Of a DNA stretch of 64,000 bases, positions 19,117-24,112 are shown piece after piece (the stretch's first letter is position 1; every line of letters starts with the position of its first letter). The notes below the pieces were generated by a model that did not search any database, had not been told where the DNA came from, and saw only the letters and a list, made by a program, of their open reading frames with translations. Source of the DNA: an uncultured Candidatus Rokubacteria bacterium (GTDB taxonomy: Bacteria > Methylomirabilota > Methylomirabilia > Rokubacteriales > CSP1-6); NCBI GenBank assembly GCA_963754315.1, contig CAVWFS010000018.1, positions 650,047 to 714,046 on the forward strand. The letters are read 5' to 3'. Made by a program: the position numbers and the translations under genes.

Positions 19117-19350
19117 CGAGGGCGTCCTGAGCGAGGTGGGGTTTGGGGGGGGGCCCGCCATTTCGGGGCCTACGAGAGCGAGCGCAGGACCGAGGGGCGC
19201 CCCGGGTAACCCGGGGCGTCCTGAGCGAAGGGGGGTTTGGGGGGCCATTTCGGGGCCCCCACGAGCGAGCGCAGGACCGAGGGGCGCCCCGGGTAACCCG
19301 GGGCGTCCTGAGCGAAGGGGGGTTTGGGGGGCCATTTCGGGGCCCCCCAA
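19117..19350. repeat. about 2.6 tandem copies of an ~87-bp GC-rich element carrying nested palindromes/hairpins (REP-like or MITE-like).
   Basis: Unit GGGGCGTCCTGAGCGAAGGGGGGTTTGGGGGGCCATTTCGGGGCCCCCACGAGCGAGCGCAGGACCGAGGGGCGCCCCGGGTAACCC is repeated directly. Contains GGGGCGCCCC, CCCGGG-TAA-CCCGGG and GGGGGGCC-ATTTC-GGGGCCCCC. Confidence 0.85.
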
Positions 19351-20548: not shown

Positions 20549-21373
20549 TTGCCTCGTCGCGAGACTTCGAATACACTGACTGAACAGCGGTTCAGTCTGG
20601 CCGGAGGTGCCTCTCGAATGGATCGGCCGATCTCCTATGACAAGCTCGCGCGCGAGGACCGATTCGTCAGGATGCGTGCCAGGGATGTGGCCGCCCTGAA
20701 AGTCGAGCAGGGACTTCCGCCTTTCCCCGACCTGGCTAGCCGCCCGTCCATGTGCGAGCGGGTGCACGGTATCTTCGTGGGCGAGTTGCAGGCAATGGAG
20801 GGCGCCGGGCGTACGGTCTACGACTTCCCGGACGCGCCCTGGGAGTTCACCATGGACATGGCGCGACAAGTGTGGGATGAATCGCGCCACGTTGAGATCT
20901 ACCTCGGTCTCCTCGACCACCTGGATGGCTACGTGGGCGAGTTTCCAGAGACGACCATCCTGTGGCGCTGCGCCTGCGCCGAGGACGCCGCAGCGCGCGT
21001 GGCGGGTGTCAACCGCGGACTCGAGGGGCTCGCTTGTGACGTCTTCAACCAACTCATTCACATCGCGGGCAAGATCGGCGATCCGATCATCGAGAAGTCG
21101 GTGGACTATGTGCTGGCCGATGAGATCACCCATGTGCGCATGGGATCGAAGTGGCTCAACAAGCTGACCGAGGGCAATCCGGAGCGGCGCCAGCGCGCTA
21201 TTGAATTCCAGGAGTCGATCGACGATCGCTTCAATCTGGGCGGGGTGCGCCAGGACGGACAGCACGAACAAGTCCAGATTTCCATCGCCAAGGACGCCCG
21301 CCGACTAGCCGGATTCACCGACGAGGAAATCGAGCGTCTGATCAAGAGCACACAGCGTTCGCCCGTCTATTGA
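20549..21373 (+). CDS. ferritin-like diiron-fold protein (DUF455-like). Function unknown.
   Basis: Two E-x-x-H motifs spaced as in diiron four-helix bundles: DESRHVEIY and DEITHVRMG. Start may be the internal MDRPISY. Confidence 0.45.
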   Translation: MPRRETSNTLTEQRFSLAGGASRMDRPISYDKLAREDRFVRMRARDVAALKVEQGLPPFPDLASRPSMCERVHGIFVGELQAMEGAGRTVYDFPDAPWEFTMDMARQVWDESRHVEIYLGLLDHLDGYVGEFPETTILWRCACAEDAAARVAGVNRGLEGLACDVFNQLIHIAGKIGDPIIEKSVDYVLADEITHVRMGSKWLNKLTEGNPERRQRAIEFQESIDDRFNLGGVRQDGQHEQVQISIAKDARRLAGFTDEEIERLIKSTQRSPVY

Positions 21374-22335
21374 TGGACGGTCATCGCCTCGCCGGCGACC
21401 TGTCGGTCGACGCCTCGGCCCGCCTGATCCGCCACTACCGCTACGTCGAGGAGCGGATGATGCGTGTGATGGGCGGCTGGATCGCTCTCACCCCCGAACT
21501 GCCTGCCAAGCTCTTGCTCGGTCGTCACGTGTGGGATTGCGCCCAGCATGCCGACCTGTGGGGGCGTCGCCTTCCCGAGTTGCGCACAGCCACGCAGCAG
21601 TCGGAACCGGCTAACGAGGCGGTCGTCCGCTTCATGGATACTCTGGAGGCCGAGGAGGGTTACGCCGAAACGCCAGAGCGCCTGGCCGGGATCTACCGTG
21701 TGCTCAAACCCCACCTGCTGTCGGTGTACATCAACCACCGTGCCCGGGCCAATCCCGTGTTCGAGCCACCCACGCGGCGAATCCTTGATCGCTGTGTGGA
21801 CGAGGAGTCTCGGCACGCCGCTGCTGGCCAGATCGTGCTGGAGGCCTTGACCCGTGAGCCGGATCCCCGCCGGCGAGCCGAGGCTTGGGAGGAGCAGCTT
21901 CAGCGAGCCCTGCAGGAGGCAGGGGGGATCACCGGTAACACCCCCGTTCAGCCGGGTGCGAGGATCACCCACCCCCGCGCCTACGATGACGTGATCTCCC
22001 TCGGCCGGGTTTTGGCCAGGCCGGACCTGCCCGTTGAGCTGAAGCGTGAGCTCGACCGCCATCGGCGCGCCGTCGAAGCCGGCGACCTCGCGTCGCTGGC
22101 GGCGCAGGTCTTCGAGGCCGAATGGGAACACGTGCAGACCGAGTATGGGAGGCTGTCCGTTCCGCTCACGGCCTCCGAGGTCGTCGCCGTCGCAAAGATC
22201 GGCGCCTATCGAATGGTCAAGCTGGCCTTCAAAGGTCCACGTGGCCTCGCCGTCGTCCAACAGCAGTGGCGACAGGCCGACGACGCCTGGCGGCTCTACA
22301 GCGCGGAAGTGGTACGTATCGAACCTGCCGCCTGA
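21373..22335 (+). CDS. hypothetical protein with ferritin-like N-terminal region (DEESRHAAAG) and an uncharacterised C-terminal domain. Translationally coupled to the upstream ferritin-like gene.
   Basis: TGATG overlap with the upstream gene. Single E-x-x-RH motif. No other recognisable family. Confidence 0.4.
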   Translation: MDGHRLAGDLSVDASARLIRHYRYVEERMMRVMGGWIALTPELPAKLLLGRHVWDCAQHADLWGRRLPELRTATQQSEPANEAVVRFMDTLEAEEGYAETPERLAGIYRVLKPHLLSVYINHRARANPVFEPPTRRILDRCVDEESRHAAAGQIVLEALTREPDPRRRAEAWEEQLQRALQEAGGITGNTPVQPGARITHPRAYDDVISLGRVLARPDLPVELKRELDRHRRAVEAGDLASLAAQVFEAEWEHVQTEYGRLSVPLTASEVVAVAKIGAYRMVKLAFKGPRGLAVVQQQWRQADDAWRLYSAEVVRIEPAA

Positions 22336-22374
22336 CCCGGTGATTTTCCCTTGAAAGCCTGGTGCGGTTCCCAT

Positions 22375-22557
22375 GAGCCCCCAGCATCTCCCGTTGGCGC
22401 CCTCGGGCCCCGAGGCGTTCGAGCGTCGGGTGGGGCGGCATGGGGGGGCCCGTTCGAGGCCCCAGCATCTGGCGTGGGATCGAGGGGCGCCCCGGGTTGC
22501 CCGGGGCGTGCCGAGCGTTGGGGGGGCATGGGGGGCCCGTTCGAGGCCCCCCATCTA
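22375..22557. repeat. about 2 tandem copies of a ~90-95-bp GC-rich hairpin element homologous to the 19117-19350 repeat.
   Basis: GGGGCGCCCCGGGTTGCCCGGGGCGTGCCGAGCGTTGGGGGGGCATGGGGGGCCCGTTCGAGGCCCCCC is roughly 80% identical to the unit at 19.2 kb. An upstream partial copy is ...CATGGGGGGGCCCGTTCGAGGCCCC. Confidence 0.8.
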
Positions 22558-23904
22558 ATGTTCAAGACCGTCCTCGTCGCTAACAGGGGCGAGATCGCCC
22601 GTCGCGTCTTTCGCGCGTGCCGGCGCCTCGGGGTCCGGACGGTAGCCGTCTTTTCGGAGGCTGACGCCGACTCGCTTCACGTCCGGGAGGCCGATTCAGC
22701 TGTGCTCATTGGGCCTCCTCCCGCCCGCCAGAGCTATCTGGCCATCGACAGGATCATCGCGGCGGCCCATCGAACCGGTGCCGATGCCGTGCATCCTGGT
22801 TATGGATTCCTCTCGGAGAACTGGCAGTTTGCGGACGCGTGCGTACGCGCGGGCTTGGCTTTCGTAGGGCCGTCGCCGGATGCCATCCGCGCCATGGGCG
22901 ACAAAACAGAGGCACGCCGGATCATGAGGGCGGCAGGCCTGCCCATCGTGCCCGGCAGTCCGGGACCTGCCGGCGATCAGGGCGAGGTCGCGCGGATTGC
23001 TACGGAGGTCGGCTATCCGGTGATCCTCAAGGCTGCGGGTGGGGGCGGTGGTATCGGTATGGCCCGGGTGAACAAAGGATCCGAGCTGGCCTCCGCTTAC
23101 GCCACCGCGGCGCGACGAGCCCAGGCGGCGTTCGGCACGGACACGCTCTATGTCGAGCGCTATCTCGAGCGGCCGCGTCACGTCGAAGTTCAGGTGTTCG
23201 GGGACAGCCATGGAGCACTCCTACACCTGCACGAGCGGGAGTGCTCGATCCAGCGCCGCCACCAGAAACTCGTTGAGGAATCGCCGGCCCCTGTGCTCGC
23301 GTCCCCCACACGCGCCGCGCTCGCTGCGGCCGCTGTGACGGGGGCTCGGACCATCGGGTATGAGAATGCGGGGACCGTGGAGTTCCTCGTCGACCAGGCC
23401 GGTCACTTCTATTTCCTCGAGATGAATACCCGGCTGCAGGTCGAGCATGCCGTTACCGAGGAAGTGACCGGCCTCGACCTCGTCGTCGAGCAGCTTCGGG
23501 TGGCGGCGGGTGAGCGCCTTAGCTGGTCGCCCGAGACTGTCGTCTCGCGCGGGTCGGCCATCGAGTGCAGGGTGTACGCTGAGGATCCCGACCGAGCGTT
23601 CCTTCCGTCGCCTGGAACGATCGGCCGTCTCGAGCTGCCGACCGGGAAGGGTGTACGGGTCGAGTCGGGAGTCGAAGTGGGCAGCACGGTGTCCGTCCAC
23701 TACGACCCTTTGTTGTTCAAGCTCATCGTCCATGGGGATTCCCGGGTGGAGGCCCTCGGACTGATGGAGGATGCTCTACATCGCTGCCTGGTCGACGGCG
23801 TCAAGACCAATCTGGCCTTCCTGCGGCGCGTGATAGCCTCGGAGGCGTTTCGCGTCGGACAGACTCATACGCAGATGGTCGAACAAGGAGCCTTCAATGC
23901 CTGA
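22558..23904 (+). CDS. accC: biotin carboxylase subunit (ATP-grasp), 449 aa.
   Basis: MFKTVLVANRGEIA..., ATP-grasp glycine-rich loop, FLEMNTRLQVEH, C-terminal BC domain. ATG at 22558 lies after the repeat array. Confidence 0.9.
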   Translation: MFKTVLVANRGEIARRVFRACRRLGVRTVAVFSEADADSLHVREADSAVLIGPPPARQSYLAIDRIIAAAHRTGADAVHPGYGFLSENWQFADACVRAGLAFVGPSPDAIRAMGDKTEARRIMRAAGLPIVPGSPGPAGDQGEVARIATEVGYPVILKAAGGGGGIGMARVNKGSELASAYATAARRAQAAFGTDTLYVERYLERPRHVEVQVFGDSHGALLHLHERECSIQRRHQKLVEESPAPVLASPTRAALAAAAVTGARTIGYENAGTVEFLVDQAGHFYFLEMNTRLQVEHAVTEEVTGLDLVVEQLRVAAGERLSWSPETVVSRGSAIECRVYAEDPDRAFLPSPGTIGRLELPTGKGVRVESGVEVGSTVSVHYDPLLFKLIVHGDSRVEALGLMEDALHRCLVDGVKTNLAFLRRVIASEAFRVGQTHTQMVEQGAFNA

Positions 23905-24112
23905 GGAGATCAAGGCGCATATCACGGGTGTCGTCTTTCAGATCACTGCCAAGCCCGGAGACTCCGTGGCCAGCGGCGATCCCGTGATTGTGCTGGAGTC
24001 CATGAAAATGGAAATCCCTGTAGAGGCGCCGCGCGCCGGCTCGGTCCTGGAGGTCTGTGTTCAGGAGGGGCAGACGGTTCAGGAGGGCGATACTGTTGCG
24101 CTTCTTGAGTGA
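23897..24112 (+). CDS. minimal biotin carboxyl carrier protein (71-aa biotinyl domain only).
   Basis: Biotinylation motif ESMKME inside a hybrid-barrel biotinyl/lipoyl domain. Overlaps the accC stop. Confidence 0.8.
   Translation: MPEEIKAHITGVVFQITAKPGDSVASGDPVIVLESMKMEIPVEAPRAGSVLEVCVQEGQTVQEGDTVALLE

Follow-up and report, generated by a model that had tools for sequence, protein, structure and literature searches.

Two adjacent genes of an uncultured Candidatus Rokubacteria bacterium, here called A and B, probably encode a single two-subunit enzyme of the ferritin-like kind that activates oxygen, in which A would be catalytic and B, a degenerate partner, would have a structural or substrate-handling role; we put the probability of this reading at roughly 60%. 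The genes were analysed within a 64,000-nucleotide stretch of DNA (the window; G+C content, ~65%). Taken singly, A is an ordinary member of a known, uncharacterised family, DUF455. B consists of an N-terminal domain related to DUF455 (BN), a linker and a putatively NTF2-like C-terminal domain (BC). The triad of DUF455, pseudo-DUF455 and NTF2-like domains recurs without annotation in Pfam or NCBIfam, and we found no paper on this combination in the literature.

Gene structure and the metal site of protein A

The list of open reading frames contained two frames on the + strand, at 20549–21373 and 21370–22335. The initial annotation began gene A at TTG 20549, which is 69 nt too early: nearly all of the ~1,700 homologues of A are 251 aa long and begin with MDRPI or MERPI, and we therefore assign the start to ATG 20618. 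This codon is preceded, at a distance of 8 nt, by a Shine-Dalgarno-like GGAGGTG read from the sequence (20603–20609, + strand), and the corrected gene (20618–21373, + strand) encodes a protein of 251 aa. Gene B (21373–22335, + strand) encodes 320 aa from ATG 21373, a start that agrees with the 320-aa homologue P0001 (99% identity). The genes overlap in the TGATG described initially (21371–21375, + strand), in which the stop codon of A (TGA, 21371–21373) and the start codon of B (ATG, 21373–21375) have one base in common. This overlap suggests that translation of A and B is coupled; reading of the A/B junction revealed no obvious Shine-Dalgarno sequence for gene B. Both ORFs are real, and not chance frames, because A matches DUF455 with 94.8 bits and each protein has more than 1,600 homologues.

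The DUF455 match (PF04305; E = 8e-27, gathering cut-off 34.3 bits) makes A a member of that family and aligns aa 56–262 of the long ORF with profile positions 51–247. The initial proposal of a DUF455 or ferritin-like protein is thus borne out. The two motifs noted at the time, DESRH and DEITH, are present and supply E88/H91 and E169/H172 to a full set of six ligands, E56, E88-x-x-H91, E136 and E169-x-x-H172. The corresponding codons on the + strand are 20783–20785 (E56), 20879–20881 (E88), 20888–20890 (H91), 21023–21025 (E136), 21122–21124 (E169) and 21131–21133 (H172). All six residues, including both E-x-x-H pairs, are invariant in a 19-sequence family alignment, and the same holds at every covered position (95–99 of 99 domains) for DUF455 domains of other lineages. 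Conservation of A within the phylum is high, with a mean column identity of 89% in the 19-sequence alignment and a median identity of 83% over 79 loci. A diverse profile of the fused family described below aligned, through its DUF455 half, the ExxH...E...ExxH pattern onto the diiron ligands of the bacterioferritin ferroxidase centre and of R2-like ligand-binding oxidase (E ~1e-5). Judged by these residues, A carries a complete carboxylate-bridged dimetal site, most likely of the diiron kind, and we predict that it is the catalytic subunit.

Modelling of A with AF2 reached a pLDDT of only 45, because the alignment used for it (19 sequences, 85% identical) was too shallow. The model is unusable, and the ferritin-like fold of A is therefore taken from sequence profiles alone. 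When A, B and their shallow profiles were compared with PDB sequences, nothing significant was returned; one match, to Crov588, was rejected as a repeat-protein artefact, its individual domain E-values all being >100. NCBIfam holds no model that matches A, B, the fused proteins or the stand-alone BN proteins. Homologues of A are labelled 'DUF455 family' or 'ferritin-like domain-containing protein' by NCBI and JGI. Literature searches for DUF455, PF04305 and COG2833 found no functional study; DUF455, a ferritin-like family of wide distribution, is mentioned in papers on bacteria and several eukaryotes, without characterisation there.

Domains of protein B

Homologues of B fall into more than 1,600 sequence clusters. 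All are annotated 'hypothetical', none contains a Pfam domain, and those that are named belong to Candidatus Rokubacteria/Methylomirabilota. With a pLDDT of 86, the AF2 model of B shows a helical bundle at aa 12–182, a variable linker, and a C-terminal part of three helices and four strands. On this basis we divide the protein into BN (aa 1–190; 21373–21942, + strand), a linker of poor conservation with indels in the family alignment (aa ~191–219; 21943–22029, + strand), and BC (aa ~220–318 plus the stop codon; 22030–22335, + strand).

[quoted passage not shown] Its relationship to DUF455 is barely visible to Pfam: B scores 12.6 bits (E = 0.1; cut-off 34.3) over the second half of the domain only, and weak matches were obtained for seven of 24 members of the B family (best E, 0.0035). 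Profile-profile alignment with hhalign matched BN to DUF455 over 167 columns and all four core helices, with a probability of 97.9% and an E-value of 3.6e-13, when the alignments were extended with distant homologues; shallow family alignments gave a probability of 37%. Since B lies below the Pfam cut-off yet is clearly homologous by profile-profile comparison, we regard it as a distant paralogue of DUF455 and not as a member by the family criterion.

The hhalign alignment equates the ligands of A with residues of BN as follows: E56 with E26, E88 with C56, H91 with H59, E136 with K112, E169 with E145, and H172 with H148. The corresponding codons of gene B (+ strand) are 21448–21450 (E26), 21538–21540 (C56), 21547–21549 (H59), 21706–21708 (K112), 21805–21807 (E145) and 21814–21816 (H148). 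B thus retains four of the six ligand positions, among them the single EESRH motif (E145/H148) noted initially, and the remaining two are occupied by Cys and Lys, so that the ligand set is incomplete. In the AF2 model, C56 and K112 are mid-helix residues, each in one of the four long helices. Across 84 BN domains, position 112 is K in 59, L or I in 19 and R in four, and never D or E; position 56 is D in 41, H in eight and C in seven; position 59 is H in 68, position 145 is E in 53, and position 148 is H in 48. The initial annotation described A and B as two diiron-type ferritin-like proteins. Both are ferritin-like and A has the full diiron set, but B, with its Cys and Lys, is not of the diiron type, and none of its ligand positions is invariant across the 84 domains. 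By these residues, BN is a degenerate, site-deficient paralogue of DUF455.

BN may nevertheless bind a metal of its own. Within the phylum it is ~80% identical, and the family alignment shows E26, H52, C56, H59, H114, H122, E145 and H148 to be invariant; this strong conservation, which includes a mid-helix Cys and several His, exceeds what a passive scaffold should need and could reflect metal binding. A candidate half-site would consist of E26, C56 and H59, perhaps with E145/H148, and H52, H114 and H122 are nearby. Elsewhere, most BN domains have a residue at position 56 that could serve as a ligand, and most keep His59, as counted above. Both subunits would then be metalloproteins, with BN providing a second catalytic, redox-relay or sensing centre. 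Against this stand the lack of any ligand position invariant across BN domains and several fused proteins that have lost most of the candidate ligands, such as P0290 (Q56, S59, T145, Q148). A dinuclear site in BN is excluded, because 82 of 84 domains have Lys, Leu, Ile or Arg at the helix-3 position. We consider a metal-binding BN rather unlikely, and prefer to see BN as a partner of A that has given up the metal site.

The C-terminal domain was described initially as an unrelated domain of ~150 aa. It is indeed unrelated to the N-terminal half, but its length is ~130 aa, made up of a 30-aa linker and a domain of ~100 aa. The block of lowest confidence in the B model, aa 211–220, has a pLDDT of 58, and the two preceding 10-residue blocks have values of 81 and 78. 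In its secondary structure, three helices and a curved four-stranded sheet, the modelled BC fits an NTF2-like fold. Its best Foldseek matches in the PDB are also NTF2-like (3fka, AtzH and the CaMKII hub), with target-normalised TM-scores of ~0.45–0.6 and E-values of 6e-3 or weaker. Weak Pfam matches among the 24 B-family members include two to AtzH-like and two to DUF4864; when isolated BC or its free-standing homologues were searched against Pfam, no family was reached even at E = 5. These free-standing homologues are genes of 100–130 aa that lie between BN and DUF455 genes elsewhere (hhalign probability 98.2%, E = 3.5e-14).

Linkage of A and B and genomic context

Patterns specific to BN identified 80 genomes of the phylum Methylomirabilota/Rokubacteria. 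Gene A lies directly upstream of gene B in 79 of them, and the one exception is a contig that breaks off at B. The A–B gap is -4 to +37 nt in the majority of the 65 related loci that were evaluated, with an overlap of 1 or 4 nt in 14. The region iscS-cysE-HD-dinB-A-B-accC-BCCP-rpoD is, however, syntenic across the phylum, and because the whole neighbourhood is conserved, the adjacency of A and B within the phylum is weak evidence when taken by itself.

Stronger evidence comes from other phyla. When 1.84 billion cluster representatives were searched with a profile of B alone, 1,277 relatives emerged. Among these are ~20 diverse proteins of 405–550 aa, each representing a cluster at 50% identity, that start with BN and continue into a complete DUF455 domain; those with a named source include proteins of Bacteroidota, Chloroflexota/Anaerolineae and Longimicrobium. 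Given ~20 diverse representatives, the fused proteins are unlikely to be artefacts of assembly or gene calling. Their pairwise identities of 25–45% mark the fused family as an old one. In their alignment the six DUF455 ligand columns are invariant; none of the BN ligand columns is, and the helix-3 Lys is nearly so.

Domain mapping in 85 loci revealed further arrangements of the same modules. The order found in the window, DUF455|BN-BC, is accompanied by fusions with an extra DUF455 copy and by the orders BN|BC|BC|DUF455|DUF455 and DUF455|BN|BC|DUF455. One BN gene, at locus L084, stands alone; within 8 kb of it there is no DUF455. A fused query was used to retrieve the metagenome loci, which makes co-occurrence in them partly a product of the selection; this bias does not affect the search of cluster representatives or the genome scan, as both started from B only. 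The idea of a heteromeric enzyme, raised in the initial annotation, is strengthened by the fusions and by the alternative gene arrangements in other phyla. Since other bacteria fuse both in one protein, A and B very probably work as one enzyme.

The gene upstream of A had been called dinB, and it does encode an IMS-family polymerase. It adjoins A in 39 related loci and is absent from 26 others with enough upstream sequence; the link of dinB to A and B is not constant even within the phylum. The window contains 87-nt palindrome-containing repeats, which are found upstream of dinB (copies at 19120–19350) and downstream of B. Between the dinB stop codon (20540) and A there are none. The repeats therefore bracket dinB, A and B together, and not A and B alone as first described. 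The suggestion that A and B form an independently regulated unit is not upheld, given this position of the repeats and the absence of a promoter-like site between dinB and A. A scan for promoters and terminators gave nothing above chance, the only terminator-like hairpin, itself at chance level, being located after B.

The initial annotation saw no obvious substrate gene nearby, and we agree; nor does the window contain a reductase or ferredoxin gene near A and B. The Fer4-type cysteine motif CxxCxxCxxxC[P/G] is absent from the entire 64 kb. In four other loci (L085, L166, L167 and L168) a gene for a Fer4 ferredoxin of 90–94 aa overlaps or directly follows the fused gene. These loci represent three distinct fused homologues, P0302, P0428 and P0411, of the Chloroflexota type. 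A ferredoxin gene beside the fused genes points to a redox enzyme, and some fused homologues lie in catabolic-looking clusters that combine a Fer4 ferredoxin with dehydrogenases and transporters.

No partner gene common across clades emerged when the neighbourhoods of the 85 loci from other lineages were clustered. The recurrent neighbours are lineage-specific: TetR with PEPCK; GH38, FAA hydrolase, enolase-superfamily and M20 genes; and sigma-70. Because the neighbours differ between lineages, no pathway or substrate can be assigned to A and B. Other recurrent neighbours were dismissed as antisense ORF artefacts in high-GC DNA. A link to haem biosynthesis, considered on account of a URO-D gene beside one fused homologue, was dropped, since a related locus, with URO-D-family genes beside genes for a corrinoid protein, a pterin-binding protein and RACo, is a methyltransferase system.

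In the two-subunit enzyme that we propose, A would bind a dimetal centre, probably diiron, and activate O2 as the catalytic subunit. B would have arisen from a duplicated DUF455-like domain that lost its helix-3 carboxylate (now Lys112) and exchanged the helix-2 Glu for Cys56. BN would pair with A in a pseudo-symmetric dimer, where it would stabilise A or shape access to the site of A. For BC, conceivable tasks are the binding or presentation of a small and perhaps hydrophobic substrate, the capping of the active site, and oligomerisation. The electrons for O2 activation would probably be delivered by a ferredoxin. The domain identities, the ligand patterns, the paralogy, the strict co-occurrence and the fusions are observations; a physical A–B complex, iron as the metal, oxygenase or oxidase chemistry, and a division of labour between the two proteins are what the model predicts.

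A broader reading, which we find distinctly doubtful, is that DUF455, BN and the NTF2-like domain form a widespread three-module system for O2 activation that has a housekeeping role in Methylomirabilota/Rokubacteria and binds a second metal in the BN half-site. The housekeeping role is suggested by the ~83% identity of A across the phylum and by its almost constant linkage to the biotin-carboxylase/biotin-carrier pair. If this were true, the chemistry could concern a cofactor or a lipid precursor, and a second, different metal in the Cys/His half-site of BN would take part in catalysis or electron relay.

It is unlikely that A and B handle iron, as a ferroxidase, a mini-ferritin or a bacterioferritin-like protein for storage or detoxification, and do not oxidise a substrate. 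The motif similarity to bacterioferritin would permit such a role; it says little about function, because the ligands are common to all ferritin-like proteins. A itself has no match to the Ferritin family in the Pfam search and is larger than ferritin subunits. Its pairing with a paralogue that lacks a full site, and with an NTF2-like module, also speaks against iron handling, as do the catabolic-looking clusters in which fused homologues are found.

We think it very unlikely that A is one of the known diiron enzymes, whether a MiaE-like tRNA hydroxylase, an aldehyde-deformylating oxygenase or an acyl desaturase. Aldehyde decarbonylase is matched weakly and locally around the second ExxH (E = 0.2–1), acyl-ACP desaturases give marginal profile matches (E = 0.1–0.4), and five of 24 B-family members match MiaE_2 weakly (best E, 2e-4), but all these matches are far under the family cut-offs and confined to the common metal motif. 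Against the ADO (aldehyde deformylating oxygenase) models, A scores 11.4 bits in Pfam (cut-off 28) and 11.6 bits with TIGR04059 (cut-off 222.65). Assignment to a desaturase or to MiaE, both named in the initial annotation, likewise fails the family tests, and A does not match the MiaE model.

That A and B adjoin only through gene order inherited in one phylum, with no functional relationship, is extremely improbable: the neighbourhood is conserved throughout the phylum, but BN and DUF455 are fused in several other phyla, the modules occur in at least four arrangements, and A and B are coupled or tightly spaced in most loci.

Comparison with known systems

The likeness of A to DUF455 (PF04305, ferritin-like clan) lies in a profile match well over the cut-off and in the E / ExxH / E / ExxH ligand set. 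The family description mentions neither an obligate degenerate paralogue as partner of an A-type protein nor an NTF2-like module. A large branch of DUF455 can now be recognised in which the catalytic domain is always accompanied by a paralogue deficient in the metal site, either fused to it or encoded next to it, and in many cases by a small NTF2-like module too. B, previously without annotation, becomes a defined family, and its pairing with A yields a concrete, testable model of quaternary structure. The Chloroflexota-type clusters with their dedicated ferredoxin offer a practical entry to the search for a substrate.

By analogy, the closest known parallel to A and B is phenylacetyl-CoA epoxidase, in which catalytic PaaA and structural PaaC have the same fold at 17% sequence identity (PMC4498308). 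PaaA is insoluble alone; the small subunit PaaB binds near the PaaA/PaaC interface, and electrons come from a separate reductase (PMC4498308). A and B likewise combine a catalytic subunit with a partner of the same fold that lacks a full metal site, and BN would play the part of PaaC beside PaaA, or of the beta beside the alpha subunit in bacterial multicomponent monooxygenases. If the analogy extends to solubility, A may be hard to study on its own. The two systems are not the same: A does not match PaaA_PaaC and the best E-value in the B family, 0.0024, is not significant; the accessory module of B resembles NTF2 rather than PaaB; paa genes and a CoA-ligase context are lacking; and the Chloroflexota-type homologues have a Fer4 ferredoxin as putative electron donor in place of a PaaE-type reductase.

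The alpha and beta subunits of bacterial multicomponent monooxygenases, which act on methane, toluene and phenol, are much larger and belong to different sequence families, and A and B are not accompanied by genes for a gamma subunit, an effector or a reductase. The fused homologue P0302 scores 24.8 bits against Phenol_Hydrox, just over the whole-protein cut-off of 24.4, with no single stretch significant. Another fused homologue reaches 22.2 bits, and A has no match and is not a member.

An active diiron protomer whose folding or assembly requires a paralogue that has lost metal ligands is also known from yeast Rnr2/Rnr4 and from ferritin H/L. These proteins have no specific sequence kinship to A and B, weak R2-like matches being found at the motifs, and their roles differ. 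Finally, the helices and curved sheet of the modelled BC may correspond to those of NTF2-like and SnoaL-like domains, such as AtzH, the CaMKII hub and ketosteroid isomerase.

Conservation of the gene pair and the downstream biotin genes

When the window pair (20618-22335) is compared with the A-B loci of Methylomirabilota/Rokubacteria genomes (L001-L080), the DUF455 protein A proves far more conserved than its partner B, with median identities of 83% and 51%, respectively. Most of the divergence in B is confined to the linker and the C-terminal domain; the N-terminal ferritin-like domain (BN) remains ~80% identical.

B is followed in the window by a biotin carboxylase gene (accC, 22558-23904) and a gene encoding a 71-residue biotinyl carrier with an ESMKME motif (23897-24112). 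No carboxyltransferase gene adjoins this pair. Of 64 related loci from the L001-L080 set, 61 have a biotinyl-carrier gene no more than 3 kb downstream of B, sometimes immediately 3' of it. The linkage to this gene is tighter than that to dinB, the gene directly upstream of A in the window.

BN and DUF455 in other lineages

At four loci, a small Fer4 ferredoxin gene (L085, 9257-9529; L166, 7267-7551; L167, 7260-7532; L168, 1781-2053) comes directly after a Chloroflexota-type gene in which BN is fused to a full DUF455 domain. The surrounding genes are of catabolic type, encompassing a corrinoid methyltransferase set with RACo, AP_endonuc_2, Amidohydro_2, Rieske and PhyH proteins, aldehyde dehydrogenase, and ABC transporters.

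A single lineage carries consecutive genes for BN, two tandem copies of the NTF2-like C-terminal domain of B, and two tandem DUF455 paralogues (L113, L115, L118, L125, L133, L138, L142, L160, and L137, the sequence of which breaks off inside the second DUF455 gene). Upstream there is often a TetR-family gene; downstream there is usually a gene for a GTP-type PEP carboxykinase.

BN also occurs as a stand-alone gene of 216 residues with a His-rich helix-2 motif, HxxxxHxxH (L084, 8001-8651; GCA_024276425.1). DUF455 domains are absent within 8 kb of this gene, which has a VanY-family gene on one side and a sigma-70 gene on the other. In L092, L093 and L158, too, a sigma-70 gene is found one to a few genes downstream; in L149 there is one on the opposite strand.

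Repeat elements around dinB-A-B

Tandem repeats with a unit of ~87 nt lie upstream of dinB (19120-19350, 2.5 copies) and downstream of B (22370-22555, ~2 diverged copies). Because every unit contains two GC-rich palindromes, GGGCGCCCCGGGTAACCCGGGGCGTCC and TGGGGGGCCATTTCGGGGCCCCCCA, these are REP/MITE-like intergenic elements. The GGGCGCCCCGGGTAACCCGGGGCGTCC palindrome occurs at only three places in the 64-kb window, all in these flanking repeats (5 matches when both strands are counted, versus 0 expected by chance). The listed ORF starts of dinB (19143) and accC (22351) are artefacts, as the mechanical reading frames extend into the repeats.

The A-B spacer measures 97-297 nt in a few related Rokubacterial genomes, compared with at most 37 nt in most loci. 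In two loci (L028, L039) it opens with a GGGGGGCCCC motif resembling the ~87-nt element of the window, which suggests that repeat-like elements can insert between the coupled genes.
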